From positions 13,459-77,458 of the IMG/VR virus record IMGVR_UViG_3300035698_029335: a stretch of DNA of 64,000 nucleotides; one strand, written 5' to 3'. Numbering within the stretch: position 1 is the first letter of the stretch; each line of letters opens with the position of its first letter. This DNA comes from a virus. Below the pieces are notes generated by a model, which did no database searches, had not been told where the DNA came from, and saw nothing but the letters and a program-made list of their open reading frames with translations. This document shows positions 10,598 through 25,578 of the stretch, in pieces. The position numbers and the translations under genes were made by a program.

Positions 10598-10629
10598 ATT
10601 CTTCTCCTAATTTGTAGACGCCTTTATTG

Positions 10630-10869
10630 TTACGTCGTATTAATTCTTCTATTACTTCCAAGTGTTTTCGTTCGAATTCTTCTCTTCTGTAGTTGTATAA
10701 ACTCACCCCTACGGATCAGTTTATATTGTATCACATATGTTTGCCCTTCATAGGAGAAACATGGAAGCTCCTGCAATATTTCAACGACAAGAACGAACTT
10801 GCCGCGAATATCATTAAAGCCAGACCAATTCGCACCTGTTAGCACTAAGTCGCCTACTTCGAACTTCAT
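10630..10869 (-). CDS. GDLV-family protein with a non-family C-terminal tail
   Basis: MKFEVGDLVLTGANW...PCF; lacks the family ATIVSK-like end. Confidence 0.6.
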   Translation of the reverse strand: MKFEVGDLVLTGANWSGFNDIRGKFVLVVEILQELPCFSYEGQTYVIQYKLIRRGEFIQLQKRRIRTKTLGSNRRINTT

Positions 10870-11043
10870 TCAATTGCCTTTATCTTCGTGGTTACATAGC
10901 CAATAGCCTGCCACTATCCATCATCACTAGTGTACCTTTGGCGACAAGAATTTTTGTCGTTTTCCTTCTTTTTGTCACCATGGCAACCAGCACCAGAAAT
11001 ATTCCATGCCTTTAATGCATTGAGATTCCTAGTTGCTGCAATT

Positions 11044-11196
11044 TTATTCCTGCGTCTTTTCTTTTTTCTCTTTCCCACATGTCCCACCGGTCGCCATATC
11101 TTCGACGACCTTACAGTCATCACCTGAAAACTCTTCAGACCAATGATCATTCCAGCTTTCACCAGTCAATTGTATGAGATCGCCGACCTGAAACAT
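11044..11196 (-). CDS. short GDLV-family protein (not in the ORF track)
   Basis: MFQVGDLIQLTGESW..., 50 aa. Confidence 0.5.
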   Translation of the reverse strand: MFQVGDLIQLTGESWNDHWSEEFSGDDCKVVEDMATGGTCGKEKKEKTQE

Positions 11197-11207
11197 GTTT
11201 TTTGTCA

Positions 11208-11540
11208 TTATTTTGCCAAGGAGAAGGTGCCATAAACATTATCACCGGTCTCATACTTCAACTCAAAGTCAACTGTTACCTCCTGATCGAACTCTAGTAC
11301 CTCCATGATGATCGTCTTTGCTTTGCGATCATATTCCCAACCAGCTGCAGCGGAACCAGAACAACCAAGCCCTACGACTTCACCATCAGTATGCTCGAAT
11401 GTGTGAGTTCCAGTGCTCAAGTTCTGTGCATTGAGACCGCTTTCGAGGAACATAAATTTAGCCATGTACATTTTCTCGCCGTTTGTCGTGACGAGACTAA
11501 ACTCCTCGAAGCCATGTGAGTCTGTACACACCTTCTTCAC
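11208..11540 (-). CDS. hypothetical protein
   Basis: Co-oriented, coupled ORF. Confidence 0.55.
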   Translation of the reverse strand: MKKVCTDSHGFEEFSLVTTNGEKMYMAKFMFLESGLNAQNLSTGTHTFEHTDGEVVGLGCSGSAAAGWEYDRKAKTIIMEVLEFDQEVTVDFELKYETGDNVYGTFSLAK

Positions 11541-11743
11541 GCAACTACTTTTGAAATCAACTTGATGGTCTCACGTTTGTACAAATTGTTGTCGGTCGCG
11601 TGCACGTCTGGCGTACACCATTCAATTCTGTAAAATCGCATAGCATAAATAATTACTCCAATCACAATGCCATAACCTAGCCTGGCGAACCTTTCGCCTG
11701 AAGCATGTCTCACTAGGTCTCCAATATGAACTTTTCGCATCAC
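11537..11743 (-). CDS. GDLV-family protein
   Basis: IGDLVRH...GIV...YRIEW...IKLISK. Confidence 0.65.
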   Translation of the reverse strand: MMRKVHIGDLVRHASGERFARLGYGIVIGVIIYAMRFYRIEWCTPDVHATDNNLYKRETIKLISKVVA

Positions 11744-11985
11744 AAAACCTTTGTCTTAGCTATCAGAGAAAGGGAAGTTGCGCTTCTGGTGATAATGAGT
11801 TCTCCATACTCTAAGCGATACACAAGCTTGTTGTCCCAATAGTGTGACCTATATTTTTCTACAATTAGAAAAGGTCGAACTGTAGTTATGGGAACCCCGT
11901 CGTTCAGCCGCTCTTCATCAACCAAACAAACTAAATCACCAATTTGAAAACTATAATCATCACAGTCATCATCACAGTCATGCAT
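11740..11985 (-). CDS. GDLV-family protein
   Basis: FQIGDLVCL...LSLIAK. Confidence 0.65.
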   Translation of the reverse strand: MHDCDDDCDDYSFQIGDLVCLVDEERLNDGVPITTVRPFLIVEKYRSHYWDNKLVYRLEYGELIITRSATSLSLIAKTKVL

Positions 11986-11993
11986 TGGGGTCC

Positions 11994-12200
11994 TTAAGTT
12001 GTAGAAACAAGTGAATCACAGGGCATTTCAATTCTCACAGCACACTGATTAATGCGTTTTTCCATTATATGATTTCGCCGGGTATGTGCACCAGAACTGC
12101 ATGCCTTCAAGTAGTTCACTTCTGTTCTTCCTGAAGCTCTCAATAAATAAAGTCTTGCCTCACCTTTACCTAGCTGATAAGATACCATCACATTCATCAT
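11994..12200 (-). CDS. hypothetical protein
   Basis: Co-oriented ORF. Confidence 0.35.
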   Translation of the reverse strand: MMNVMVSYQLGKGEARLYLLRASGRTEVNYLKACSSGAHTRRNHIMEKRINQCAVRIEMPCDSLVSTT

Positions 12201-12430
12201 AACTTTTCTGCTTTCTGTATTAGGAGGAGCGGCTTGTTTGAGCCTTGTTGGTTGCCAAAGAGCGAATGTTTCTCGCCAAAGGCAACAACGTAAGTGAGAT
12301 TTGTATCTGCATAGTTTTGATAGACAGAATCATACACACTAATAACTACACCTATACCATGCTCATTGATCAATTTATTAGAGTATATACTTGAAAGAGA
12401 TACTAAGTCGCCGACCTCTATTTCTTCCAT
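12197..12430 (-). CDS. GDLV-family protein
   Basis: IEVGDLVSL...GIGVV...Y.V.F...LLLIQK. Confidence 0.65.
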   Translation of the reverse strand: MEEIEVGDLVSLSSIYSNKLINEHGIGVVISVYDSVYQNYADTNLTYVVAFGEKHSLFGNQQGSNKPLLLIQKAEKL

Positions 12431-12434
12431 TTTA

Positions 12435-12659
12435 TCACCCTTTCGATATTTTATATTTCTTCCAGTTTCTGAGAGCGCCTCCGTATTCTTCTCGTTCGAC
12501 TACTTCGCAGGTGCCATCAAAAGGACAACTCGTGCCTGAAAGTAAAACATATGAATCATTTATTCCATCTGTAGCAACTACTAGAAATCGACAAGTACCC
12601 GTGTCTTCATTAATATCAATGTCGCTGCTGTATATAAGGTCTCCAACTTTTAGATACAT
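12435..12659 (-). CDS. GDLV-family protein
   Basis: LKVGDLIY. Confidence 0.6.
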   Translation of the reverse strand: MYLKVGDLIYSSDIDINEDTGTCRFLVVATDGINDSYVLLSGTSCPFDGTCEVVEREEYGGALRNWKKYKISKG

Positions 12660-12859
12660 TCTTCTAGCTCCTTTACTCTCGCGACAAGTTTCAAACTAGA
12701 GCCTTTGTGGGTCCTATTTGAATAGGTTGAATGAGGTTTATTATCTTGCCAGAGAATGATATATCTCTCGCCCTTAAAAGCAAAAGTAATTATGCCCAAT
12801 GCATTGTTCAAAATGGGACTCTTCTTGCATACTAAATCGCCTACTTTAAACATCAACAT
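12650..12859 (-). CDS. GDLV-family protein
   Basis: FKVGDLVC...GII...YIILW...LKLVAR. Confidence 0.65.
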   Translation of the reverse strand: MLMFKVGDLVCKKSPILNNALGIITFAFKGERYIILWQDNKPHSTYSNRTHKGSSLKLVARVKELEECI

Positions 12860-12957
12860 AATTATTCGTCCGACAAATTAATTGCCCGTACAACTCTTGC
12901 GACTGGGTTTGTAGCAGCAGCAATCAACTGAAGGTTTGTGGTTTTGATTGCGAAGCT

Positions 12958-13194
12958 TTAAGAAATGCCATACACAAACTCAAGCATAGGCAACTCTTCT
13001 TTGATCTGATGCTTATAGAGGCTATCTTTGGCTCGTGGGTGGTGGTCTGCTTTTAACTCAAAGCCATGCAAACCACACTTTCCAGACCACACTTTCCTAA
13101 TGGCTTGCTCATCTGCAGAAGCAAAATAAATGTCGCCCATTGAAGACGTTCCAGTGCTATCGCACCGCCTAATCAAAACATACATACCCAGCAC
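12958..13194 (-). CDS. hypothetical protein
   Basis: Co-oriented ORF. Confidence 0.45.
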   Translation of the reverse strand: MLGMYVLIRRCDSTGTSSMGDIYFASADEQAIRKVWSGKCGLHGFELKADHHPRAKDSLYKHQIKEELPMLEFVYGIS

Positions 13195-13209
13195 CCTTTC
13201 GTCTGCAAA

Positions 13210-13536
13210 TTATCTTAAAATAGTACCGCGAAAGCATCTTGTTATTGTGTGCCACTCACCGTCCCACGATGAATCACCCAACATCAATTGCCCTTTTTTG
13301 GTGTATACACCAACTCCATCAGTAACACCAAATTCATTCAGCAGACCGTTGAGTCGCTCTCTAGTGGTGGTCGTGTTCCATCCGGCAGTAGTAATGTGCA
13401 GCCCGAGATTAGAGAACTTTGCAATCTTGTTGCCGCGCAAAAACATCTCACCATCACGCACACATGTGTTTGCTTTGCCGAAGTTTTCTCCATCGAAAAA
13501 GGCTGCAGCTGCTTCTTTAGTGATCTTTCGTGACAT
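13210..13536 (-). CDS. hypothetical early protein
   Basis: First gene after a promoter, AGGAG SD; GW.TTTT.ERLN motif. Confidence 0.65.
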   Translation of the reverse strand: MSRKITKEAAAAFFDGENFGKANTCVRDGEMFLRGNKIAKFSNLGLHITTAGWNTTTTRERLNGLLNEFGVTDGVGVYTKKGQLMLGDSSWDGEWHTITRCFRGTILR

Positions 13537-13563
13537 GCGTAGCTCCTGGTTTTTGTTAAATTA

Positions 13564-13592
13564 AGTTTAGCAGATCATTTTGCATTTGTCAA
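13564..13592 (-). promoter_or_regulatory. early promoter, ATGATCTG class
   Basis: TTGACA-aatgcaaa-ATGATCTG-c-TAAACT. Confidence 0.85.
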
Positions 13593-13678
13593 ATATGTTA
13601 CGGCTCATATTCAACCACGCACTGTACCAGCATTAGTTCGTTCTGGTTCCGGTGCGCGAAAAGTGTTTTCGAGTCATC

Positions 13679-13900
13679 TCAACTCCTCAGTTGTTTTCGC
13701 CCATGAGACAATTCAGCAAGAGCAAAGCCTCGAATGAAGGCTTTGAAGAGTGGAATATTACAACCCACTTCACCGCCTTTCTTGACTAGCGTCATTAATT
13801 CATCATGCAACAATGGCACACATGTACCACCATCCTTGAAGTGCATTTTTCCCATTCGCTGAGCTTCTAAGAGTACTTCGCGAGCGTAAATCACAGCCAT
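13679..13900 (-). CDS. hypothetical protein
   Basis: AAGGA SD, co-oriented. Confidence 0.55.
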   Translation of the reverse strand: MAVIYAREVLLEAQRMGKMHFKDGGTCVPLLHDELMTLVKKGGEVGCNIPLFKAFIRGFALAELSHGRKQLRS

Positions 13901-13915
13901 TTTTGTTTCCTTCTT

Positions 13916-14113
13916 TTAAAAGATGCTCTTTTTAGCCGAAAGAGCGCACTGTTCCATCGATTCATCAACTGTGAGAGGTCGCAAGCCCATGATTTTATAG
14001 ATTTTTCCGGTAACTGCACGAATCTTCTTTTCACAGGCGACTGCCTCTGCCAACGTATCAGTGCATGCACAGACTTGCTTTGTTTCGTTCAAGATCACAT
14101 ACATATTGAACAC
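13916..14113 (-). CDS. hypothetical protein
   Basis: Follows a promoter. Confidence 0.5.
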   Translation of the reverse strand: MFNMYVILNETKQVCACTDTLAEAVACEKKIRAVTGKIYKIMGLRPLTVDESMEQCALSAKKSIF

Positions 14114-14133
14114 CTCATCTTTCTTATTTTCTT

Positions 14134-14162
14134 ACTCTACCAGATCATTTTGGTAAAATCAA
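14134..14162 (-). promoter_or_regulatory. early promoter, ATGATCTG class
   Basis: TTGATT-ttaccaaa-ATGATCTG-g-TAGAGT. Confidence 0.7.
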
Positions 14163-14166
14163 CCTT

Positions 14167-14661
14167 CTATTCGCATTTCGTTGAGGCAGGTGGCAATTCG
14201 TTTTGAGTTGCAGTCTTTATTAAGCCGACTCTCTCTGTATCTTCTTCTGTCCAATAAGTATCTTCGCTGTGAGTGGAACCATCATACAACCAGCCGGTCC
14301 TATCTCTAATATCCGTATGGGTTAGTTCGTGCGGCAATGCTAGTGGTATAGTGTATATGTCACTATTGGAAGTATTGTATCCAGTAACACAAATATCATC
14401 TTCTACCATATACGCGTCTTTGTATTGTTGTGTCACATCTAATGCAGCACTAAAGAACTCGATAGTGACTCCTTCATAGTTCCTACCAAGAAGAGCTAAT
14501 ACTCTTTCAGCATACACTCTCTCATCAACGCTCATGCCAATCAAGCATGCTCCAGAAGGCGCACTTTTGTGACCACCCCTTGCGAACTCGTTCTTACATG
14601 GTCCTTCTGGAATACAAGAGTTCATTAAGCAGACGGCAAGTATCATGATAGCATATTTCAT
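14167..14661 (-). CDS. putative lipoprotein with HExxH motif
   Basis: MKYAIMILAVCLMNS-C signal peptide/lipobox; PHELTH. Confidence 0.55.
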   Translation of the reverse strand: MKYAIMILAVCLMNSCIPEGPCKNEFARGGHKSAPSGACLIGMSVDERVYAERVLALLGRNYEGVTIEFFSAALDVTQQYKDAYMVEDDICVTGYNTSNSDIYTIPLALPHELTHTDIRDRTGWLYDGSTHSEDTYWTEEDTERVGLIKTATQNELPPASTKCE

Positions 14662-15221
14662 TCGACTACGCTCTTGATTGCCTTCTTGTCTAAGCCAATA
14701 ATAGCTCTATTAAGTGAACGCATGATGTGTTCCACTTTATTAGTTTCATCTCTGGTTACAGTGTCGGCATTTAGATGAGCTTCAAAGATGCATAGCTGCG
14801 CCACCAACTTTCTCGTTGCAATAATTGCAGTTGCGGTGCACTTATCATGACGACCCTTTACTCGTGCGGCTCGCTGCTGAGCTTCTTTCTTAGTCACGCC
14901 AAAGGCTTTTCTGGCTTCTATACGCTTTTTGTTCCACAATTCAATGATTGGCAACGAGAGATCATCGTCCTTCATGAAGAAGAGGCATGTTCGCTTATTT
15001 GAATTCAAAAAATGTATGAACTCATTCCACAAACCTGCCTCTTCTTGTGAAAGGTCGACATGTCTTGTAGCAGCTGCTTTTGTCATAGCATACGTCTGGG
15101 CTCCTAACGATCTCCTGCTGCTGTCCCAACGATTTGTTATCGACCACATTCGCTCTGTAAATTGCTCCAGGCGCTTCATTATTTCGCTCGCCAACGCTGA
15201 CGGCTCCTTATACTCTTTCAT
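14658..15221 (-). CDS. hypothetical protein
   Basis: GAGG SD, coupled to the next gene. Confidence 0.6.
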   Translation of the reverse strand: MKEYKEPSALASEIMKRLEQFTERMWSITNRWDSSRRSLGAQTYAMTKAAATRHVDLSQEEAGLWNEFIHFLNSNKRTCLFFMKDDDLSLPIIELWNKKRIEARKAFGVTKKEAQQRAARVKGRHDKCTATAIIATRKLVAQLCIFEAHLNADTVTRDETNKVEHIMRSLNRAIIGLDKKAIKSVVE

Positions 15222-15230
15222 CCTTTCCTC

Positions 15231-15395
15231 TTATTTGTATACTTTCGTTAATACACTGCTTGCATGCAAGAGTGTGGCACCTTTGTAGGTGCCAACTACC
15301 CACTCGACGCGTACAAATTGGTAGCCTATAGTTTGCACTATTTTTCCTAAGCTACCAGCTTCCAAGCGTACTTCTTCACCTATCTTAAAATACAT
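15231..15395 (-). CDS. GDLV-like small protein (not in the ORF track)
   Basis: MYFKIGEEVRL..G.LGKIV....VRVEW...LTKV, 54 aa. Confidence 0.55.
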   Translation of the reverse strand: MYFKIGEEVRLEAGSLGKIVQTIGYQFVRVEWVVGTYKGATLLHASSVLTKVYK

Positions 15396-15485
15396 CTCAT
15401 ACTCTTATTAAGGGGTGGGTGAAGTACAATGTCCAGCGGCGAACACAACTCTTATAGCGCTGATGTTTTACCGCTTTAATTATAA

Positions 15486-15806
15486 TCACGCCGATCCGTA
15501 TTTCGTCAGGGCTCGTTCTAGGAAGCCACCATCGAAAAGAGACTCGAACACTTCTTGTGGGATGCCCACCTTTGCGTGACTGAAGCGTGTCTTATTTTGA
15601 GCCATATTGAGGCGCTGTACTGCGATGTGCACCCCGAGCTTACGATTAGGGTTGTCGGCTGGATTCACAACACTGTACGCTGCGTCGAACGTACCATTGT
15701 CGTTTACAGTGTACACTAGGGTGCCCATCAAACGACCTCGCTCCGAGCTGTAATCGTTCTTGTTTTGGTGGAAATGTTTTACTTTAACTTTTTTAACTTC
15801 TTGCAT
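15486..15806 (-). CDS. hypothetical protein
   Basis: GAGGGG SD; D.PNRKLG..IA..RL motif seen in phage proteins. Confidence 0.6.
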   Translation of the reverse strand: MQEVKKVKVKHFHQNKNDYSSERGRLMGTLVYTVNDNGTFDAAYSVVNPADNPNRKLGVHIAVQRLNMAQNKTRFSHAKVGIPQEVFESLFDGGFLERALTKYGSA

Positions 15807-15845
15807 GTGTTCTTCCCTCAGCCTTGAATGGCTATTTGTTTACTG

Positions 15846-16109
15846 TTACTTCTCTTCGTCTTCGTCTATACTTACTGCTCTGCCTTTAATTAATGACAAA
15901 GGCACCCGGCAGCTGCGACCTAAATTCTGTAAGTACACCTCATATATACAGGTTAAATGTCCACCCACAACAGACGTATAAGGTCCTGAAAGAATGTACC
16001 CAACCCCAGCCACAAACTTTCCTTCTTCTTGCTTGTAAAGGCGACGTCGCATCGCGTGATCGCTCATGCTTATTTCGACCAAGTCACCTTCGTGATATAC
16101 TTCTTTCAT
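15846..16109 (-). CDS. GDLV-family protein
   Basis: YHEGDLVEI...GVG.I...YEVY. Confidence 0.6.
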   Translation of the reverse strand: MKEVYHEGDLVEISMSDHAMRRRLYKQEEGKFVAGVGYILSGPYTSVVGGHLTCIYEVYLQNLGRSCRVPLSLIKGRAVSIDEDEEK

Positions 16110-16314
16110 GCTAGTTCACCTTCGGAGAATACACAGCTCGCTAGTTTGATTCTAAGCTCACGAGTCATACAGGTCCCTCTTTTATTCCACAATACTTTAG
16201 CTAAGTGCAGTTGCTCTGCATAAGATACATGTTACCGATGACAATACCTATGTCGCCCTTAGATCCCTCTTCCTCTTGTAGGAGCTGCACTAAGTCGCCG
16301 ATGTTATATTGCAC
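16106..16314 (-). pseudogene. frameshifted GDLV-family gene
   Basis: VQYNIGDLVQL...DIGIVI hits TAG; the other frame continues AKVLW...IKLAS to a stop coupled to the next ATG. Confidence 0.55.
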
Positions 16315-16315
16315 T

Positions 16316-16531
16316 TCAATCTCCTTCGGGTATATATACAGCTTTCGCTAGTTTGACGTATGAGGCGTTATCAATACAGTGAACAGTCTGCCCTTCTAGC
16401 TCTCCCCACGACACCCTAATATAACGATCGTGCATTATATCGATGACAATACCTATATCACACACATGTTTTCCTTGCATGAAATACACTAAATCACCAA
16501 CGCTATAGTGCACCTTTCTTTTCTTCATCAC
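16316..16531 (-). CDS. GDLV-family protein
   Basis: YSVGDLVY...DIGIVI...IRVSW...VKLAK. Confidence 0.65.
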   Translation of the reverse strand: MMKKRKVHYSVGDLVYFMQGKHVCDIGIVIDIMHDRYIRVSWGELEGQTVHCIDNASYVKLAKAVYIPEGD

Positions 16532-16547
16532 TCACCTTGTTGCAGTG

Positions 16548-16599
16548 AAGTGAAGGTGTGACAACAGTGTTATTCAAAGTAGTTGTCACACCTTCACTT
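16548..16599. terminator. 18-bp perfect inverted repeat
   Basis: aagtgaaggtgtgacaac-16nt-gttgtcacaccttcactt; the T-run lies on the plus strand. Confidence 0.5.
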
Positions 16600-16603
16600 T
16601 TTC

Positions 16604-17806
16604 TTAGTAGTCGATAGCCACTACTTTTTCGTGAGTAGTGAAGTATGGATCTTTGGCTCCTCGAGAGTCAGTCATCCACAGTCTAGTACACTTTGAATTG
16701 ATGGGCTTTTCAGCATACATATCTGTCAATACAATGCAGCCATCAAAGCTTCGCTCGTTGATATATCGCGCAGGTGCATTGAAATCAGTACCACCACACA
16801 TCACTCGTTCGTGCGCCTTTCGTTCGTTCTTCTTCCAAATATACACCAAGTTGTCATCAACAACTGTGTCGAAAGGTACAACAGTGAATTCTGCCACTTC
16901 TGCAAGCTTATTCAATTCACTATAGAACGCTGACAACATCATGTCGCTGACTGAGCCAGACTGATCGATTGCGATTGCGATCTTTGCAGTTCTGAGGGTT
17001 TTTCGTCCGCTGTGAATGTATGGGTATCTACGGTTAATCTTCTTGACTGAAGATTGGTGGCTTGATCGTTGTGAGGTCTTCACAAAGTAACGAAGTACCG
17101 ACTTCCAATCAACCTTTGGAGTGATTCGGTCAATGATTTCTTGGCGCATGCTCGATGACACCGTGCCCCAACCACCCTTCATGCTTTGTTGCGCAGCTGA
17201 GGATATCGCCCCTTTCAATCGCTGCCTTGCAAGTTCCTTGATAGCCTCTGGGATCTTTCCGTCTTTCGACCAGCCATTGTGGGAATCAAACCCCTCACCA
17301 TTGCCGTCGCTGTCACCCTCACCGCCTTCGCCGTCGCTTGGCTGACCTCCTGGAATCCTTATTCCCTTCACTCCGAGACCAGATTTGAAATACCACTCTG
17401 CAGATTTCCCGCGCGGCATTTTCAACTTTTCTGGCAAGATTGCCTTAGCGTAAAGTTTCTTGATGTCGTCTCTGGGTTGGGCGGGGAAAATTTCGCTATT
17501 GATCGCTGCATCGGTCGCATAGTTCCATCGCTTTGTCATGCCTTCGGCAGGCATGCGTTCAGTGACATGTCCCAGGACGAGGTGCAGGAATTCATGAATC
17601 AAAACAAGCCTGATCTCTGCATCAGTGAGCTTGGAGAAGAAGTCGGCATTATATAGCATATCAAAACGCCCACTATGTGGGTTGACCCGAACTCCTGCAG
17701 TCGGAATCATCGTCGTAGGCGATTTAGTGACATGGCGGGAGAGTGCAGCATAGAATGGCTCTTCAGCCAAGAGTCGAGCAACGTGCATGTTCAGATCGAA
17801 AGTCAT
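16604..17806 (-). CDS. metallopeptidase-like plus VWA domain protein
   Basis: HEFLH (HExxH), N.ATD.AIN, G/D-rich linker, MIDAS DQSGS, GGTDF, LTD. Confidence 0.85.
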   Translation of the reverse strand: MTFDLNMHVARLLAEEPFYAALSRHVTKSPTTMIPTAGVRVNPHSGRFDMLYNADFFSKLTDAEIRLVLIHEFLHLVLGHVTERMPAEGMTKRWNYATDAAINSEIFPAQPRDDIKKLYAKAILPEKLKMPRGKSAEWYFKSGLGVKGIRIPGGQPSDGEGGEGDSDGNGEGFDSHNGWSKDGKIPEAIKELARQRLKGAISSAAQQSMKGGWGTVSSSMRQEIIDRITPKVDWKSVLRYFVKTSQRSSHQSSVKKINRRYPYIHSGRKTLRTAKIAIAIDQSGSVSDMMLSAFYSELNKLAEVAEFTVVPFDTVVDDNLVYIWKKNERKAHERVMCGGTDFNAPARYINERSFDGCIVLTDMYAEKPINSKCTRLWMTDSRGAKDPYFTTHEKVVAIDY

Positions 17807-17843
17807 CTTTTTTCCTTTTGGTTCTGGTGATCTGCCTGGAAAC

Positions 17844-17872
17844 ATTATAGCAGATCATTGTGGTTATGTCAA
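17844..17872 (-). promoter_or_regulatory. early promoter, ATGATCTG class
   Basis: TTGACA-taaccaca-ATGATCTG-c-TATAAT. Confidence 0.88.
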
Positions 17873-17980
17873 ATACGTTTCCCAAGTATCTTTTTCAGTT
17901 TACATCTGCGATGATCTCGGAAACTTTTCTAATATCTTCAGATTTCATAATGATCCCTGCCTTTCAAAGATCGTAACAAA

Positions 17981-18109
17981 TCATTCTCCTGTTGTCAACG
18001 CTTTGCTTATCATGGTGGCGGAATAGTCACAATGCCCACTATTGAAAGTAATCTCTTCCATTGTACCGTCACTCATTGCGAAGAACGGGTCACCAATCTC
18101 AAACTGCAT
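17981..18109 (-). CDS. internally deleted GDLV-family gene (42 aa)
   Basis: AGGAGG SD; MQFEIGD-PFF...DYSATMISK keeps both family ends. Confidence 0.5.
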   Translation of the reverse strand: MQFEIGDPFFAMSDGTMEEITFNSGHCDYSATMISKALTTGE

Positions 18110-18124
18110 AAATACCTCCTTGCT

Positions 18125-18153
18125 AGGATATCAGATCATCTCACTTCTGTCAA
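18125..18153 (-). promoter_or_regulatory. early promoter, ATGATCTG class
   Basis: TTGACA-gaagtgag-ATGATCTG-a-TATCCT. Confidence 0.8.
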
Positions 18154-18164
18154 CAACTACTCGT

Positions 18165-18193
18165 AAAGAAAAAGAGGGGCTTGCGCCCCCCTC
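18165..18193 (-). terminator. intrinsic terminator after the AAA gene
   Basis: GAGGGG...CCCCTC stem followed by TTTTT. Confidence 0.75.
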
Positions 18194-18213
18194 AATCACC
18201 ATTCAACTACTTC

Positions 18214-19356
18214 CTAGCTCTTAGCAGCTGCTTCTTCAGCCTCTTTCTTGGCTTGCATCCCAGTCAACAACTCACGAAGGTAAATAGAGACAGCTGTTTT
18301 CTTGCCATTAATAGTCACAGGTTGTGCATGCAAAGCAACAGTGTTTTCCGTCGGACCAACATTGAGTCCTCCCCAGATCTTCATGGCTGCTTCCGATGGC
18401 AAGGTGATGAAGTATTCACCAAGATTCTTGATCTGCTTCTTGGTCAACTTCTTAGCGAGCGACTCCATTGTTGCCATCTTCTCGATCAAGGTCAAGTGCT
18501 CAATAAGACCGTAGTCTTTAGTCAGCTCGAGCTTACCCTTGTCGATGATGTCAGCTGGCGACACTTGACGGTCATAAGATCCGAAGAAGTCTGAGAACGC
18601 ACAGGCTGCTTCAAACCCTACATAGCCAAGAGACAGAAGACGAATCTTATCGCTCCACTCTTCGAGCAGCCCTGATTCTCGCATGGTGTCATTCAGACGC
18701 TTCCAGGAGCGTCGCGAAGGGTACTTCTTATTTGCCACGAAGTCATCCTTCGCGTTCTCAAGGTGAGGAATGTTCTGATTCACGAAATCAAGAACAACCT
18801 TGTCGAGGTTATTATGCCCCAGCTCTCTGCCATCGGCATCACGAGCAGGAGCTTTGCCCCATTGCATCCAATCTTCAACAGAAGGAGAAATGTCGTATAC
18901 AGTCCAGCGATCGAGTTCTGCCGGATCCATCTCACCAACTTGATATTGTGCCCCCTCGTCACCCCCATTAACTGCCGCGACTACCAAAGTGTCCTTGTGT
19001 AGGGCAAAGCCGTTGAGCTTTCGCGAGTCAGTAAGCTCGAAGATGCCTTGACGTACTTCGATTACGGCACGGTCAACTTCATCGAGGAACAACATTACTG
19101 GGCTGCAGCATGCATCTTTAAACCAGTCTGGCGGGTTCCAAGCCGTTGCTGCATCTTCAATAGTCGGCAACCCAACCAGGTCACCTTCAGTCATTTGTGA
19201 GGCACGTCGTTCGACGACGCGAAGACCAAGATCTGCAGCTGCTTGGTAGACGACCTCAGATTTACCAATTCCATGTCGACCACGGATCATTAGCGGGTGC
19301 TTTGCTTCAAATACGAATGGAGCGATTTCACGGAACGTAGCAAAGTCAATCTTCAT
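18214..19356 (-). CDS. MoxR-like AAA+ ATPase
   Basis: Walker A GRHGIGKS, Walker B LFLDEVDRA, sensor AAVN, MDPA..DRW, SRRSW. Confidence 0.88.
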   Translation of the reverse strand: MKIDFATFREIAPFVFEAKHPLMIRGRHGIGKSEVVYQAAADLGLRVVERRASQMTEGDLVGLPTIEDAATAWNPPDWFKDACCSPVMLFLDEVDRAVIEVRQGIFELTDSRKLNGFALHKDTLVVAAVNGGDEGAQYQVGEMDPAELDRWTVYDISPSVEDWMQWGKAPARDADGRELGHNNLDKVVLDFVNQNIPHLENAKDDFVANKKYPSRRSWKRLNDTMRESGLLEEWSDKIRLLSLGYVGFEAACAFSDFFGSYDRQVSPADIIDKGKLELTKDYGLIEHLTLIEKMATMESLAKKLTKKQIKNLGEYFITLPSEAAMKIWGGLNVGPTENTVALHAQPVTINGKKTAVSIYLRELLTGMQAKKEAEEAAAKS

Positions 19357-19402
19357 TTCTCATCCTTTAGCAGAGAGTGGTTTGTTTGTCTCTCTTGGAA
19401 CC

Positions 19403-19431
19403 AGTCTATCAGATCATTTCTAATGTGTCAA
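19403..19431 (-). promoter_or_regulatory. early promoter, ATGATCTG class
   Basis: TTGACA-cattagaa-ATGATCTG-a-TAGACT. Confidence 0.85.
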
Positions 19432-19567
19432 CGTTCCTGGTGGTGTTTTTTATTCTTCTTTATAAACAGATAGTTATGCGGCTGTAGCTCTTATTTCTGT
19501 TCCTCCACAGTTCCTCTTTAAGGCTGCGCAGGGGAATGATCACTTTTGAGATCAAAAAAGCCAGACA

Positions 19568-19923
19568 TCAGCCTGGCAGTCTTCCGTCATATTTATCGAA
19601 GTCGCTTTCCCACATCTCCGCCACCGTATATCCTTGTTCTTGCAGAGCCTTTTTTCTTTTCAGCCACTCGTTGTGTAATGCACCATATTTTTTTTGACAA
19701 CCGGGTTTGTTCCCTCAGCTAGGTATTTGTCTGGCGAGTGTGCCGAGCGCACATTGGGCAACCTGCTGCACTACTTATGTGATTGCTAGGTGATTGCATA
19801 AAGACTCCGTGTTCTAAGCACACTATCTTTACTTTTGTGCGCGCCCTTGTAGTCAGTCAAATTATAGTTATAAGTGCCTTTGTGCACTAACCTAGCTCGT
19901 TTGATAAACTCATCTGTAGTCAT
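19568..19923 (-). pseudogene. miniature degraded copy of the repeat-module endonuclease
   Basis: MTTDEFIKRARLVH..., one frameshifted module, catalytic core missing, tail GYTV.EMWESDFDK with DNA near-identical to 50633-50687. Confidence 0.8.
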
Positions 19924-19934
19924 TGTTCTCCTAC

Positions 19935-20165
19935 TCATTCTTGATCCCACTTCCTGAACATCGAGACCTGATACCAGTCATCATCCTGGGTGGTGTACTT
20001 CTGACATGTGACATACTCTCCATTCCATTGGAAGGCTGGAGCGCCGTCGCCCCATTGTACAGCCATCGCAACGATAAGTTTAAATTCTCCTTTGAGACCA
20101 AAGTTCGCCCAACTTTCCCCTGTCAATTGTACAAGATCACCTATTTCAATTTCTTGTTCACTCAT
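19935..20165 (-). CDS. GDLV-family array unit 5
   Basis: MSEQEIEIGDLVQLTGESW. Confidence 0.75.
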   Translation of the reverse strand: MSEQEIEIGDLVQLTGESWANFGLKGEFKLIVAMAVQWGDGAPAFQWNGEYVTCQKYTTQDDDWYQVSMFRKWDQE

Positions 20166-20401
20166 GGGATGTATACATTACTTACAATGGTGGCTGAGTA
20201 GTCTTCGTAGCCACTTACGTAAGTTTCTTTACAATAAATGCTCAGGTAGTCGTAGATGTTGCCACTATCATAAGCAATTCTCGGGTGCTTCCCCACACCA
20301 ATGATAAGTGTCATTGTGTTGTACAACTCTGGAAAGTCACTCCGCCATGTAAGCCCAGTCAACTGCACAAGATCACCTATTTCGAATTCTTGCTCTTTCA
20401 T
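20162..20401 (-). CDS. GDLV-family array unit 4
   Basis: MKEQEFEIGDLVQLTG...DYSATIVSNVYIP. Confidence 0.75.
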   Translation of the reverse strand: MKEQEFEIGDLVQLTGLTWRSDFPELYNTMTLIIGVGKHPRIAYDSGNIYDYLSIYCKETYVSGYEDYSATIVSNVYIP

Positions 20402-20592
20402 GGTTTATATACTTTGCTTACAATAGTGGCTGCCCACCTTTCATTGACGTAATACAATTCGCCATTGTTAATAAACGCTGGTCCAAACATGTCTGATGTT
20501 GTTAATAATACAACGCTATCTTTAAGTTCTCCCCACCAATCTGCACCAGTTAATCTTACCAAGTCTCCTATTTCAAACTCTTGTTTTTTCAT
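20398..20592 (-). CDS. GDLV-family array unit 3
   Basis: MKKQEFEIGDLVRLTG...AATIVSKVYKP. Confidence 0.75.
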   Translation of the reverse strand: MKKQEFEIGDLVRLTGADWWGELKDSVVLLTTSDMFGPAFINNGELYYVNERWAATIVSKVYKP

Positions 20593-20784
20593 GGTCTACA
20601 TACCTTACTTACAATAGTGGCTGAGAAGTCGGTTTCGTATTCATCATAATAATAAATACTCCAGGTTTGCCGACAGGTCGAGAATGAGCCAACTGGAAAT
20701 ACCGGATCACCTTCAGCGTCATAACCAGTAATTCTGACCAGTCAGAATTACCAGGTCACCTATTTCAATTTTTTGTTCACTCAT
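20589..20784 (-). pseudogene. GDLV-family array unit 2, frameshifted
   Basis: MSEQKIEIGDLVILTG then an early TGA; the other frame reads VRITGYDAEGDPVF...DFSATIVSKVCRP. Confidence 0.75.
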
Positions 20785-20984
20785 GGATTGTATACCTTAC
20801 TTACAACTGTAACTTCCCATTCCTCGCCAACATAATATTTTTCACAATCAATAGGATCACAAAAACATGGCTGATAGGAGTTATTGAGTGACGTTATCAA
20901 TACAGTTTTGTTTTTAACTTCTTCCCACCAAGCATCACCAGTCAATTGTACAAGATCACCTATTTCAATTTCTTGCTCTTTCAT
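20781..20984 (-). CDS. GDLV-family array unit 1
   Basis: MKEQEIEIGDLVQLTG...VTVVSKVYNP. Confidence 0.75.
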   Translation of the reverse strand: MKEQEIEIGDLVQLTGDAWWEEVKNKTVLITSLNNSYQPCFCDPIDCEKYYVGEEWEVTVVSKVYNP

Positions 20985-21012
20985 GGTTTATATACTTTGC
21001 TTACAATAGTGG

Positions 21013-21663
21013 CTATAGTTTATACTTTTTAATGTCGCGCTCCTCTACCGTTACAGCACAAGTTCCACCAACAGGCATCAAGAGGTATTTTTTCGCCCCC
21101 ATTGCATGAGATGTTGGGACCTGGTGGTTAGAAGCAACGACGAGAGCGGCTTTCCACTCTGCAATATCTTTGAGGTGCTTCTTCAGAGTAACAAGCGCAC
21201 CATCAGCGAACTTTGGCTTTTCAGTGTATGCTATATAATAGCCTTCTGCGTACTTGCTGTGCACAAATTGCTTGTAAGTTCTCCTTGGCACAACATAGTC
21301 TTCTTCTTCAAAAATCCTGCTTATTAGTGCGCCCCAATAGCCAGTCTGATTGAGTTTGTTTGTCTCAAAGTAGAACTTAGCCATGATCATTGCACGTGGT
21401 CGCAATTCTGTTAAGTAATCACGCTTGTGCTTTTCTTCAAGCGCTAAGTAAGCCGGAGCGGTAGTTTCTTCGATTTTCTCAAAAGTTTTCATTTGCGCGT
21501 AGCTGAGATCACCATATTTTCGAAGAGTTTGCTCAATAGACTCAAGAAATTTCTTGTTCCACTCCGAAGTGTTGTCGGAGAGGGCTTCTGCTGTGTTTTG
21601 AATTCTCTCAAGGATCTGGTCAGGCATTCTAAACTCCTCTGTATGTATACTCCATCTTATCAC
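21013..21663 (-). CDS. hypothetical protein with C-terminal SH3-like module
   Basis: W...FLESI......LS..Q N-terminal motif; PKF..GALV C-terminal module. Confidence 0.65.
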   Translation of the reverse strand: MIRWSIHTEEFRMPDQILERIQNTAEALSDNTSEWNKKFLESIEQTLRKYGDLSYAQMKTFEKIEETTAPAYLALEEKHKRDYLTELRPRAMIMAKFYFETNKLNQTGYWGALISRIFEEEDYVVPRRTYKQFVHSKYAEGYYIAYTEKPKFADGALVTLKKHLKDIAEWKAALVVASNHQVPTSHAMGAKKYLLMPVGGTCAVTVEERDIKKYKL

Positions 21664-21902
21664 GGATCACTTTGAGAGTCAACCTCCATTTCCTCGCACG
21701 CCACCAACAAGCGCAGGCAGCGCAGCGCTATGTATTGTGGTCTCCTGGCTTTTCGAAACTTAACTACAAACCATGCCGATGGTAATACTGGCTTCTCAGT
21801 GACTACGCCGACGTCGCTCTGCAAATACCCAAAGAGACTGGTCGAATATTTGTCATCAGCTATGCATACCAAGTCGCCAACACTAATATCTTCTCGGTTC
21901 AT
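21660..21902 (-). CDS. GDLV-family protein
   Basis: ISVGDLVC...GVV...FVVKF...LRLLV. Confidence 0.65.
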   Translation of the reverse strand: MNREDISVGDLVCIADDKYSTSLFGYLQSDVGVVTEKPVLPSAWFVVKFRKARRPQYIALRCLRLLVACEEMEVDSQSDP

Positions 21903-22786
21903 AGTTCACGCTCACGCACTTTACTTGCAAGAGTGGCTGTATAATCGATCGCGTATTTGTGGACCCTAATCAATAGAATGTCTTTGGTAGCTACATACTT
22001 TTCGAGCATCAGATCTTTCTTTTGTACAACTTCAAGCTGCCCATGTATTTCTCTAAAATGATGTGGACCATCAACTTCTATTATCACCTTCATCCTTTTC
22101 GCATATATATCTATTTGCTTTCTCGACGTCAAGTTCATATCGAATAATACACTTTTTATCTGCCTGTTACTCTTAAAATCATATGTCGGAAATCTTTCCT
22201 TAATGTACATATACATCCACTTCTCTGGTTTAGACTTATACTTGTGCATTTGCTTTATACATTTGTTGTAGAAATCTTCTGGATTTTCTTTCCTCCATCG
22301 AGCAAGTACTTCAGCTCTCTTGTCTTGCACATCTTGTCTGGCTGAAGTTTTCATTGCTGTCTTTGAAGCACGTTCTCTAAAATCCTCTCTTTTGTTCAGA
22401 TTCCCAAGGAGTCTTGAGCGGCGAAGCCTCTCGGCAGGATTAGCCATTATCGATTTTGTTACAACTTGACCCATCCTAAGTTTTGCCTTCTCGGTCATGG
22501 TTTCATACCCCATCTCTTTACATCTGCTATTACTGCAGTTGTGCTCCTCCTTATAGTGTGGCGACAAATCGGCAGATACAAAGCTGCACAACTCACACGC
22601 TATAAGGTCTCCCAATTCTACACCCCTTTCCTTACAAAGCTCACAAACGTATCTGTGATTGAAGAAAGCCTTTATACTGTATAGTTCATAATCGCAAGCT
22701 ACAGCAGTTCCAAACCTCTCTTCGCAATCTCTCTTATTGGCAGCTTTTCTCCGCATTTTGTCCTGAATTTGTGATCTTTCGTGCAT
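21899..22786 (-). CDS. Vsr/DUF559-like endonuclease adjacent to the DnaE split intein, probably C-terminally disrupted
   Basis: SKPE, QIDIY, IIEVDGPHH, KD, LLIRV; the tail DYTATLASKV is GDLV-family sequence. Confidence 0.7.
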   Translation of the reverse strand: MHERSQIQDKMRRKAANKRDCEERFGTAVACDYELYSIKAFFNHRYVCELCKERGVELGDLIACELCSFVSADLSPHYKEEHNCSNSRCKEMGYETMTEKAKLRMGQVVTKSIMANPAERLRRSRLLGNLNKREDFRERASKTAMKTSARQDVQDKRAEVLARWRKENPEDFYNKCIKQMHKYKSKPEKWMYMYIKERFPTYDFKSNRQIKSVLFDMNLTSRKQIDIYAKRMKVIIEVDGPHHFREIHGQLEVVQKKDLMLEKYVATKDILLIRVHKYAIDYTATLASKVREREL

Positions 22787-25578
22787 CTTATTACTCTCCC
22801 GTCACTTAAAGTATACTTATACACTTTTTTGACGCCGTTTTTATGTCTCTTTTTGACAGGGAGAAAAATATCCTTTTTCGTCTTTTCAGAGCGCGAACGC
22901 ACAATATCACCTGGCAGTACGTCAATAATCCTCTTATCACACAAAACATCACCACCGTCACTATAAATAGTAACCAGTTCATCAAAGTGCAAGCAAGCGT
23001 TGAAACCATAGCCAGCCCATAGCTCGCAGGAATGATACAACTTTTCTGCATCCATCTTACTAATTCCTTTTTCAATGCAGCCATCAATAAACTTCGGCTT
23101 AATCTCAGCCAACACCTTGTCTGCTTTGCCAGTACCCTTCTTAGTTAATACCTTTCTGAAGATGTTTCCGTCGTTCAGCGAAATACCTTTGCCAAGCTTG
23201 TGTGCCAATAATGCGATTTGTTCTTGAAACACAAGGAACCCATAAGTATCTTCGGTAACTTCTTTATGTAGTGGATGCAAATACTCAATTGAAGATGGGT
23301 CTTTTCTTGCTTCAATATACAACTTATCCACCTTCATACCCAATGCAGCTGGTCGAAAGATAGAAGTGACTGCTGAAATATCAGTGATATTGGTAGGCTT
23401 TACTTTTGTGCAAAACTTCTGTGCTCCTTCACCTGTAAATTGAAAGATGCCAGCCCACTTGCCTTGATGGAACACTTCTTCATATACTCTTTGATCGTCC
23501 ACGTCCAAAACATCTGGGTGTAGATTTTCATCATAATACTTCCTAACATCCTCAAAAGAAGGTCTCTTGATGCCGCGTGTGCGCTGCAGAATTCTCCTTG
23601 TCGCACCATCGATCATCTCTAAAGTAGACAAACCTAAGATGTCGAACTTAATAAAGCCCATAGGTTCCAAGTGCCTAACATTTTGACCTTCACTCCACGG
23701 CGTTTGACGTACACCCTTGCCGCTGATTAGTGGCATGTATTTGTTTAAGTCTTCTCCAATAACGCAGCCACCAGCATGCTTTGACTGACTACGAATGGAG
23801 CCGTAAAGTGCATCAATATACACTTCCACTTGTGGGTGTTTAACTAGAAACTTGTTAAGCGTATCACTGTATTTTTTGATTTCCTCAAAAGTAGGCACAT
23901 ATATACCAGTCTTTATGCCATTAGCTTTTTTAGCAGCTGGTGTTGCCTCTGAAATCATCTTACCGGTCACAACATTGACCTCAGCAAAAGGTATATCATA
24001 AAGCTTCGAGATGTCTTTGACTAACGATTTCAGTTGCAAAGTATTCCAGTTGGTAATAGGTACCACTCGGTTCTCGCCCCAATCTTCGATAAGCAAATCT
24101 TTCAATTCTGATGGATTTGAAACATCATAATCGATATCAGGCATATCAACTGCATCCGCACGCAAGAAGCGTTCGAATTGTAGGTTGTATTTTATAGGAT
24201 CAATCTGCGTAATACCAAGCGCATATGCCACGATGCTACCAGCTGCAGAGCCTCGCCCAGGAGCAGTTAATTGTACTTTTACAGCCTTATCTGCAATAGC
24301 ATTCATTGTCAAGAAGTATTTTGCAAAATTAAGCTTAGAGATTACCCCTAGTTCGTACTCAATTCTGTTCGTGTATGCGTTAGATATACGATATATCCTT
24401 TTCTTGCTTTTGTTCTTAATACTGAAGACCTTTTTCAGTCCTATCCCAACCAGCTCTTTTAGTTCTTCATCAGCCGTTTTACCTTCAGGCACAACAAAGT
24501 CAGGCAAACGAATTGTTGTGTCTGGCGCAAAATCTTCGATTACGTCATGAGCAATACTGTGTGTTAACTCGATGGATTTTAGCACCAAGTCATCATCATA
24601 TTTAATGTCCAAATCTTTCGTATATTTCTTGTACGCTTCCCACATCTGATTGCCGTTTTTAGGATACAATTCATACCCAACTTCTTCAACAGTCGAAGGG
24701 ATATCTTCGATGGACGCGCCCTTGCCTCCCATCCAGCCCAACTTCTTGTATACTAGTCGTGACTGCCATGCTTCGGGGCTAGGGTAGTGGCTGTCAGCTG
24801 TAGAGATTAGTTGTACTCCAAACTCCTTAGCCACCTTAATTACTAATTGATTAATTTCGTGTTGTTCAGGAATTGCATTCCACTGCAGCTCTGCATACCA
24901 TCTATCACCAAAAATACCTTGCATCCTTCGTGTAGTTTCGCGCATTGCCTCTAGGACTGTTTCCTCCCCTTCCTCTCTATGCAACCAATAATCTTGAGCA
25001 TAAATTCCACCCATACAAGCCGATGTTGCAATAACGCCTTCGCTGTGCTTCTCCAACAGAGCATAGTCAATGCGAGGGAAGCGATAAAAGTTCTTCTCAG
25101 TGTAGGATTGTGAAATAATCTGAAAGAGGTTGTTTAACCCTGTTTGGTTTTGCGCCAACAGGATCATATGCGCTCTTCTGTTTACTATGTTTTTATTACT
25201 TTTTTTAGTTTCTTCTTCATCTTCGATAGTAGCGCCAATAGATGAACCTTCATCTTTCTTTTTTCTACCTTTCTTAGTTTTATTTTCTTCCGCAATCCGC
25301 TCTTTGTCGAGCTTCCATTGTGTTAGGTCTGGGTGGAAGTAAGCCTCTACACCATAGATTGCCTTAAACTCTTTACCAGCTTCTTTCATCTTCTTGGTAT
25401 GCAATACTTGCTCTACTAGACCGTTCATATGCCCATGGTTTGTGATAGCCATAGCATCTCCTCCGTTTTGATAACAAAAATCAAGATGTTGATCAGTAGG
25501 ACCAAACCCGTCAAAAATTGAATATCCGTCATGAGCATGCAAATTGACATATGGGATTTTAGAAACTGTTCTTTTCAT
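22699..25578 (-). CDS. dnaE: DnaE N-terminal part (861 aa) plus 98-aa split-intein N fragment
   Basis: PHP NLHAH..YS..DG, TNHG, GRGSAAGS, PDIDYD, KFDILGL, GIFQF, GYGFNA|CL. Confidence 0.95.
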   Translation of the reverse strand: MKRTVSKIPYVNLHAHDGYSIFDGFGPTDQHLDFCYQNGGDAMAITNHGHMNGLVEQVLHTKKMKEAGKEFKAIYGVEAYFHPDLTQWKLDKERIAEENKTKKGRKKKDEGSSIGATIEDEEETKKSNKNIVNRRAHMILLAQNQTGLNNLFQIISQSYTEKNFYRFPRIDYALLEKHSEGVIATSACMGGIYAQDYWLHREEGEETVLEAMRETTRRMQGIFGDRWYAELQWNAIPEQHEINQLVIKVAKEFGVQLISTADSHYPSPEAWQSRLVYKKLGWMGGKGASIEDIPSTVEEVGYELYPKNGNQMWEAYKKYTKDLDIKYDDDLVLKSIELTHSIAHDVIEDFAPDTTIRLPDFVVPEGKTADEELKELVGIGLKKVFSIKNKSKKRIYRISNAYTNRIEYELGVISKLNFAKYFLTMNAIADKAVKVQLTAPGRGSAAGSIVAYALGITQIDPIKYNLQFERFLRADAVDMPDIDYDVSNPSELKDLLIEDWGENRVVPITNWNTLQLKSLVKDISKLYDIPFAEVNVVTGKMISEATPAAKKANGIKTGIYVPTFEEIKKYSDTLNKFLVKHPQVEVYIDALYGSIRSQSKHAGGCVIGEDLNKYMPLISGKGVRQTPWSEGQNVRHLEPMGFIKFDILGLSTLEMIDGATRRILQRTRGIKRPSFEDVRKYYDENLHPDVLDVDDQRVYEEVFHQGKWAGIFQFTGEGAQKFCTKVKPTNITDISAVTSIFRPAALGMKVDKLYIEARKDPSSIEYLHPLHKEVTEDTYGFLVFQEQIALLAHKLGKGISLNDGNIFRKVLTKKGTGKADKVLAEIKPKFIDGCIEKGISKMDAEKLYHSCELWAGYGFNACLHFDELVTIYSDGGDVLCDKRIIDVLPGDIVRSRSEKTKKDIFLPVKKRHKNGVKKVYKYTLSDGRVIRCTKDHKFRTKCGEKLPIREIAKRGLELL
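22702..22995 (-). mobile_element. split intein N fragment (DnaE)
   Basis: Block A CLHFDE, block B IRCTKDHKF, ends LPIREIAKRGLELL-stop. Confidence 0.92.

Follow-up and report, generated by a model that had tools for sequence, protein, structure and literature searches.

Tandem paralogs with conserved ends and variable cores in a large salt-lake phage

In the lpl cluster of Staphylococcus aureus, deletion, duplication, apparent conversion, and circle formation can all be accounted for by ordinary crossovers, and a comparison of more than ten genomes demonstrated the rearrangements (Tsuru and Kobayashi 2008, PMC2568036). In T4-type phages, recombination between promoter early stem-loop (PeSL) cassettes leads to insertions and deletions as well as to replacements and mini-circles (Arbiol et al. 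2010, PMC2839356; Comeau et al. 2014, PMC4122927). Judged by analogy, these two systems are the closest precedents for the locus described here, an array of five small genes (U1 to U5) with a shared repeat at their junctions. The array lies in a 64,000-nucleotide stretch of an uncultured large salt-lake phage (positions 13,459 to 77,458 of the 77.5-kb IMG/VR record IMGVR_UViG_3300035698_029335, which is estimated to be about 43% complete); this whole stretch is called the window in the following. The array is probably a birth-and-death cluster of tandem paralogs, in which the gene ends are held by fold constraint and have been partly homogenised by ordinary homologous recombination.

All 16 of the 16 listed sequencing runs that hold the window or a part of it are salt-lake metagenomes. 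Nearly all genes of the window are carried by the minus strand, and so are the five units, which are arranged head-to-tail from 19935 to 21014 and joined at every junction by an ATGA, in which the stop codon of one unit overlaps the start codon of the next. A repeat search revealed one direct-repeat family with five copies of 87 nt between 20109 and 21014. In the order of transcription, the array consists of the following elements, with the repeat copies given last:

20981-21014, minus strand: T0, an orphan family tail upstream of U1, which encodes ATIVSKVYKP followed by stop/ATGA
20781-20984, minus strand: U1, intact, 67 aa, with five strands in the structure model
20589-20784, minus strand: U2, 196 nt, dead and frameshifted
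20398-20592, minus strand: U3, intact, 64 aa, with a core that is sister to the U1 core
20162-20401, minus strand: U4, intact, 79 aa, with strands 3 and 4 separated by a long insertion
19935-20165, minus strand: U5, 76 aa, with a family head and a divergent C-terminus without the family tail
20109-20195, 20345-20431, 20536-20622, 20728-20814, and 20928-21014: the five copies of the 87-nt repeat

The repeat copies are spaced by 236, 191, 192, and 200 nt, are 74-84% identical to the reference copy with 49 of the 87 columns being invariant, and comprise the last 10 codons of one unit together with the first 19 codons of the next. Tandem Repeats Finder did not detect the array because the copies are too divergent. 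A first-pass annotation of the stretch, made from the letters alone, had described five ATGA-coupled units with a shared junction repeat, two identical stretches of 45 bp and 35 bp within the repeats, and an orphan tail at 21014 abutting the stop of the upstream gene. All of this was confirmed: the repeat measures 87 nt, the 45-bp identity (copies ending at 21014 and 20431) and the 35-bp identity (copies ending at 21014 and 20195) are exact, and T0 begins inside the TAG stop codon of a 216-aa gene (p216). T0 is identical to the U3 tail in 34 of 34 nt, and its frame is open for only 12 codons. The ATGA coupling is a habit of the genome and not specific to the array, because at least 13 further gene pairs of the window are linked by such overlaps. 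The cores had been called barely alignable, which holds for the DNA but not for the proteins: the units share 39-55% protein identity, the overall value for U1 and U3 being 55%, and every intact unit can be aligned to a single domain that has homologs elsewhere.

Like the lpl cluster, the array is built from tandem paralogs in the same direction with a conserved nucleotide segment in each unit at which homologous recombination takes place, the relationships on either side of this segment are discordant (here in a small sample), and the evolving unit spans the 3' end of one open reading frame (ORF) and the 5' end of the next. However, the conserved segment is central in lpl and the ORF ends are variable, whereas in the array the ends are conserved and the centre is variable. 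Therefore, a crossover in the array would exchange whole cores. In addition, rearrangements between strains have been shown for lpl, while none was seen for the array among the low-depth contigs of four other samples. With the PeSL system the array has in common that small accessory genes in a hyperplastic part of a large phage genome are separated by short conserved repeats. PeSLs are non-coding and provide a sigma-70 early promoter and a terminator between unrelated ORFans, whereas the array repeats are the coding ends of paralogs and contain neither element, and no circles or indel variants have been observed for the array. A third comparison is with the multigene families and tandem-duplication accordions of large DNA viruses, such as the amplification of the poxvirus gene K3L, which Elde and co-workers reportedly described in 2012. 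Here the likeness is the recombination-driven tandem gain and loss of an accessory gene with subsequent divergence, but the accordion copies are near-identical and transient, whereas the array units are old, their cores being saturated at synonymous positions, and stable across samples.

The units match neither Pfam nor PHROG families, and a 5.8-billion-protein index contained only the window's own four proteins. The exact U1 protein is found on 4 contigs in a public protein collection. A HMMER profile search against 1.84 billion cluster representatives resulted in 14 proteins at E<=0.001, the four array proteins included, and a second search starting from a 12-sequence alignment added four more, P0016 to P0019, of which P0018 has a single domain. 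The homologs contain the domain in various numbers:

P0013: single-domain homolog
P0015: one domain with an N-terminal extension
P0010, P0011, P0012, and P0014: the domain twice in one chain
P0007: the domain three times in one chain
P0006: the domain six times in one chain

P0008, an Amidase_3 protein with three SH3-like repeats, matches in the head motif only. None of the 430 pattern matches of a motif scan through 185,579 species genomes was confirmed, P0017 and P0006 as queries had no match in viral contigs, and the comparison of the homologs with Pfam gave only sub-threshold hints to SH3_2, SH3_9, and TrmI-like_N. In a profile search of the PDB the best E-value was 0.95.

The AlphaFold2 model of U1 that was based on a 15-sequence alignment has a mean predicted local distance difference test score (pLDDT) of 85.9 and a predicted template modelling score (pTM) of 0.71, with strands at residues 11-14, 27-33, 39-42, 49-51, and 58-62; with four sequences the model was poor (pLDDT 50.6). 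The matches at the top of the VIA-align list are all small barrels of the SH3-like type, with Z-scores of 4.5-6.9 (Spt5 KOW 6.9, NdhS 6.3, L21e 6.3, PsaE 6.2, with NusG, Tudor, and LSm lower). Foldseek returned KOW, Mib, and KIN17 SH3-like domains with probabilities of 0.97-0.99 but E-values above 0.05, the structure neighbours in the Atlas are KOW, SH3_KIN17_C, and DUF4314, and BFVD lists numerous small phage proteins with this shape that are uncharacterised. The model and the top structural matches bear out the small barrels proposed in the first-pass annotation. According to the model the units are SH3/KOW-like five-strand barrels of an undescribed domain, an assignment that concerns the fold class only and from which no function can be transferred. 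With the SH3-like and KOW-like barrels (Spt5/NusG KOW, the ribosomal L21e/L24 class, PsaE, NdhS, and Tudor) they would have in common the length of about 60 residues and the five-strand barrel. They differ from the described SH3, KOW, and Tudor Pfam families in that there is no match at the sequence level and the Z-scores reach at most 6.9.

The first strand of an SH3-like barrel pairs with the last one. As predicted by the model, the junction comprises strand 5 of one unit together with strand 1 and the LTG..W turn of the following unit, and the variable core comprises the long loop after strand 1, strands 2 to 4, and their loops. The first and last strands are conserved and the middles are variable, in agreement with the constant frame and variable part that had been suggested before. 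The 15-sequence alignment has G9, D10, L14, T15, G16, and W19 as invariant columns and V12 as an almost invariant one, and its sequences share the tail D[YWF]SA.LV. The head GD.V.LTG..W and this tail are the best-conserved positions in the remote homologs, which are 23-37% identical and come from other metagenomes, and they are equally kept in the fused multi-repeat proteins with their ordinary linkers. Because the motifs are conserved alike in remote and in fused homologs, most of the conservation of the junctions is due to protein constraint. At the DNA level, several heads have reached synonymous saturation. The heads of U3 and U4 differ by 8 synonymous and 4 non-synonymous codon changes in 19 codons. 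Identical residues are encoded by the same codon in 5 of 13 cases in the U3/U4 heads and in 4 of 11 cases in the U3/U5 heads, compared to a fraction of 0.40 expected from codon usage, and the cores have similar same-codon values to the U3 heads. In the U2 head, 14-20 of 57 nt deviate from the other heads. The motifs are also kept in copies elsewhere in the genome, at 50-83% DNA identity in the best-matching 30-nt segments:

10633 and 11047: family heads
3744, 18002, and 21920: family tails
outside the window: one copy
3741-3782: the tail at 3744 in full, an orphan (DYSATIVSKV) preceded by stops and located in front of a family head
17984-18130: the stretch around 18002, an internally deleted unit that keeps only head and tail

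Taken together, the sequences suggest that fold constraint is the main force that holds the ends at the junctions, with divergence in the loops and middle strands.

Homologous recombination can act on the unit ends because these stay similar. The junction before U1 (J0) is a mosaic, of which the left 45 nt are identical to the U3/U4 junction and an overlapping stretch of 35 nt to the U5 head. A permutation of the 38 variable sites gave P=0.03 and P=0.003 for the pairs and 0.03 globally. In the heads of U1 and U4, and likewise in those of U1 and U5, 11 of 14 identical residues are encoded by the same codon (P=0.004), and for the identity of T0 with the U3 tail (T3) over ten tail codons the product of the same-codon probabilities is about 2e-5. 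In addition, heads and cores tell different relationships. The cores of U1 and U3 are sisters, with 14 of 35 aa identical and a score of 65.5 versus at most 27 for all other pairs, whereas the U1 head groups with those of U5 (49/57) and U4 (48/57) and not with that of U3 (43/57), although this incongruence test is based on a small sample. A variant of U5, P0001, is encoded on a single 576-bp ENA contig. It starts with MKEQ instead of MSEQ and thus differs in residue 2 only, through three base changes that match the U1/U4 head. P0001 could stem from conversion over a short tract, from a deletion by recombination across the shared 35-mer, or from a de Bruijn chimera in the assembly. In a simple reading, the move or duplication of a unit would include the translation-initiation region upstream of it, which is located in the tail of the preceding unit.

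The first-pass annotation had interpreted the junctions as recombination handles. That the junctions have recombined stands, as documented by the mosaic J0, the discordance of heads and cores, and the orphan tails. That they are conserved for this role does not, because the motifs are kept in remote and fused homologs. Fixed unit content across relatives together with saturated synonymous divergence of the junctions had been named as refuting such a role; as to the divergence, the U3 head is at chance level against U4 and U5, and the U1/U4 and U1/U5 heads are above expectation. If the repeats were nevertheless kept as handles, the array would be a coding analogue of the PeSL system that shuffles cassettes, gaining, losing, and swapping barrel cores at appreciable frequency and thereby changing the repertoire of the population. 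The mosaic junction J0 and the discordance of heads and cores would fit such an array, the exact identities of 45 bp and 35 bp are long enough for phage recombination, orphan tails precede three family heads, a U5 variant with a U1-type start exists on another contig, and the variable slot in which the array resides is flanked by endonuclease genes. However, a role as handle is impossible in the remote and fused homologs that conserve the motifs equally well, and neither the chance-level synonymous sites of the U3 head nor the many differences in the U2 head are expected from it. Furthermore, the covered parts of the array show no joints, indels, or other unit order in four other samples, a dead unit has been retained in the middle of the array, and neither a recombinase (no dedicated integrase search was run) nor an attC-like repeat, a promoter/terminator cassette, or RVT_1 was found, while P0001 is possibly a de Bruijn chimera at the shared 35-mer. 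We consider this shuffling unlikely, and it is quite unlikely that crossovers at the junctions exchange, delete, and circularise whole barrel cores so that a repertoire of binding modules shifts against targets of host defence or takeover, with P0001 being one such recombinant. If true, it would be a protein-coding counterpart of PeSL shuffling.

Some other systems with exchangeable units were considered and rejected, as was a reading of the junctions as PeSL cassettes. There are no inverted repeats in 19800-21200 at a minimum of 14 nt, and an integron array does not apply to units without attC-type inverted repeats between them, the sole palindrome being located inside U2. The 77-kb record, with its estimated completeness of about 43%, has no RVT_1 match and the differences between the units are not confined to one base, which speaks against a diversity-generating retroelement. 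Silent-cassette antigenic variation of the vls/pilS type is not compatible with the arrangement of the units in one co-oriented run, in which every intact unit has its own ATG and stop codon. No recombinase was found at the junctions, where a dedicated integrase search was not part of the analysis.

The state of the array in the population was derived from Logan contigs of four other salt-lake runs (2017-2018, from four studies) that were placed on 19000-22300. In this region the contigs differ from the window in one base, at position 19301 outside the array. Inside the array there are zero differences, gaps, or joints, and most boundaries are bridged by single contigs:

U4/U5 junction: contig X3, 20127-20416
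U3/U2 junction and frameshift site of U2: contigs X5, 20402-20783, and X4, 20462-20748
U2/U1 junction: contig X2, 20734-20916
boundary of the orphan tail and p216: contig X5, 20985-21134

The U4/U3 junction is reached by the X3 contig, which extends 15 nt past it, but is not bridged. The order of the units is identical wherever contigs of the other runs cover the array, and where a single run has no contig over a stretch, its absence cannot be concluded from this. Thus, the gain, loss, and swapping of units that had been proposed from the single sequence were not seen in these contigs, which are of low depth. Because independent contigs match with zero differences, the array and its dead unit U2 are real. 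Logan contigs end at repeats, as de Bruijn unitigs do, and the source itself is a metagenome assembly of limited estimated completeness, so that the repeats or the frameshift could be thought of as misassembly of a low-coverage metagenome. With four independent runs agreeing throughout the array and three of the four unit-to-unit junctions, the tail/p216 boundary, and the frameshift site of U2 being bridged, such an artefact is extremely improbable.

In U2 the frame of the head stops after 21 codons, the remainder is in the +1 frame, and the segment of strand 2 is absent. Next to this break lies a conspicuous element:

20728-20751: a perfect hairpin palindrome with 11-nt arms and a 2-nt spacer, inside the U2 head

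It is the longest perfect spaced palindrome in the window, is unique with 0 expected by chance, and ends 3 nt before the point of the frameshift and deletion. It looks as if U2 had been killed by a fold-back or template-switch event at the palindrome. A programmed frameshift was rejected since there is no slippery site, the strand 2 segment is gone as well, and the break abuts the palindrome.

The domain of the array, with its head and tail motifs, recurs in tandem in the fused homologs from metagenomes, but their repeats are part of one polypeptide, whereas the array has separate ORFs, each with start and stop. One could therefore imagine that the array is a split multi-repeat protein, whose units form a multivalent assembly of barrels with a stoichiometry fixed by the ATGA overlaps. 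A one-base insertion at a junction would fuse the neighbours, homologs with 2, 3, and 6 fused repeats exist, and the last strand is followed by the next GD after 14 residues in the array and after about 15 in P0006. However, there are the single-domain homologs P0013 and P0018, single units are scattered elsewhere in the genome, U2 is dead in the middle of the array, and the units are as divergent from each other as independent paralogs. In the light of these data a split protein is improbable.

According to the birth-and-death explanation, a lineage-specific cluster would occupy the slot between p216 and an AAA ATPase gene, each unit being a complete gene. The units would be transcribed together, since there is no above-chance promoter-like site in the array and a terminator-like hairpin follows it, and the ATGA overlaps would couple the translation of neighbouring units. 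Short gene-conversion tracts or unequal crossovers would homogenise some of the junctions and leave behind a mosaic junction, orphan tails, and units with discordant head and core. Units would also die, as U2 may have been lost via the palindrome-associated deletion and frameshift. As to function, we weakly infer that the units are accessory binding modules, which might act with their variable loops on host components and be expressed together with the neighbouring accessory genes.

Several observations weigh against this explanation. The heads of U1, U4, and U5 and the tails T0 and T3 are more alike in their DNA than constraint predicts, and therefore recombination at the junctions is real and maybe frequent. 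Residues 1-8 (MKEQEIEI) and the last five residues (SKVY.P) are conserved among the units but not in the remote homologs, and the fold does not account for this. The variant P0001 might be a genuine recombinant. The contigs used for the population comparison have a depth of 2-5x, at which rare variants are dropped, and no relatives above 59% ATPase identity were found.

The surroundings of the array comprise the borders of the slot, two endonuclease genes, and putative regulatory sites:

21899-22786, minus strand: a 295-aa homing-endonuclease-like gene, DUF559/HNH-like (phrog_559 5e-8, DUF559 weak)
21660-21902, minus strand: an 80-aa gene with a looser GDLV-type head, preceded by a family tail; only the head aligns to the array family
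21013-21663, minus strand: p216, the upstream border of the slot, without Pfam or PHROG match
19571-19938, minus strand: a decayed homing-endonuclease gene, broken into at least three frame pieces, that follows U5 directly
19560-19577, minus strand: a terminator-like stem-loop with T-run downstream of the array, which would close the array's transcription unit (consensus scan only)
19431-19403: a strong promoter-like site before the ATPase gene (consensus scan only)
18214-19356, minus strand: an AAA_5/MoxR-like ATPase (PF07728 1.3e-6, phrog_1297 7.7e-48), the downstream border of the slot

The ATPase has 17 related loci with 45-59% identity, and p216 is found next to it by tblastn in 13 of these 17 viral contigs. 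The trio of p216, the ATPase, and g16604 (16604-17845) is conserved in related viral contigs, while p216 and the ATPase are 138 bp (L014) to 4.2 kb (L019) apart, with differing small ORFs in the gap, including looser GDLV-type small proteins. Because the trio is conserved while the content of the gap varies, the array fills a hyperplastic slot and p216 has not been inserted. An origin of p216 as inserted foreign gene was rejected, given its conservation and synteny in the relatives. The tight array family is present in none of the related loci. At L013:7930-8474, the slot contains three consecutive small ORFs that look GDLV-like or SH3-like but are unrelated in sequence to the array units. At L009:7894-8646 there is a 250-aa GIY-YIG-like gene that is absent from the otherwise collinear L010 and looks like the insertion of a free-standing homing endonuclease into the variable slot. 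The trio in the relatives has no DnaE within 10 kb, and in the window it is located between the halves of a split DnaE (10597-25578).

The search for relatives leaves out the record itself and near records. Megablast with 19500-22000 had no match in 50,697 phage records, searches of viral contigs with p216 and with the unit alignment and of metagenome contigs with the unit alignment gave no related loci, and exact 35-mer scans of viral and metagenome contigs returned 0 hits. Within the genome the tight subfamily has eight members. An hhalign comparison of the array family with the looser GDLV...ISK small ORFs aligned only 13 head columns, with a probability of 62%.

The stop codon of U5 overlaps the start of the decayed endonuclease gene, of which two consecutive pieces match phrog_559 at profile positions 119-150 and 147-182; the second piece also matches phrog_681 (6e-9) and, weakly, DUF723. 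The 295-aa gene closes with a family tail (DYTATLASKV) of about 14 codons, and an ATGA overlap links it to the GDLV-type gene that follows. This tail, at 21920, has 22-23 of 30 nt in common with the array tails, and its peptide matches the tails of U2 and of 3741-3782. It is as if the endonuclease gene had replaced the body of a family unit. Promoter-like sites are as frequent in the array region (10) as in shuffled sequences (9.0), with none above chance inside the array, and the consensus scan found a terminator-like site in none of the junctions. Strong terminator-promoter pairs occur only outside the array, at 19577-19403 and at 18193-18125, with a distance from hairpin to promoter of about 130 nt in the first and about 20 nt in the second. 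Both pairs have a TTGACA-17-TG-extended promoter following a T-run hairpin, and together they resemble PeSL-like composite modules flanking the ATPase gene.

The array adds a rare and undescribed family of predicted small barrels, which occurs both as coupled separate genes and as fused repeats. It is also a warning that ordinary tandem paralogs can give DNA patterns resembling those of repeats and spacers. A new mechanism would have to be assumed only if population data showed active exchange of units. As a birth-and-death cluster, the array would provide a clean phage example of how, in a tandem cluster, gene conversion and fold constraint at the ends of genes strengthen one another.

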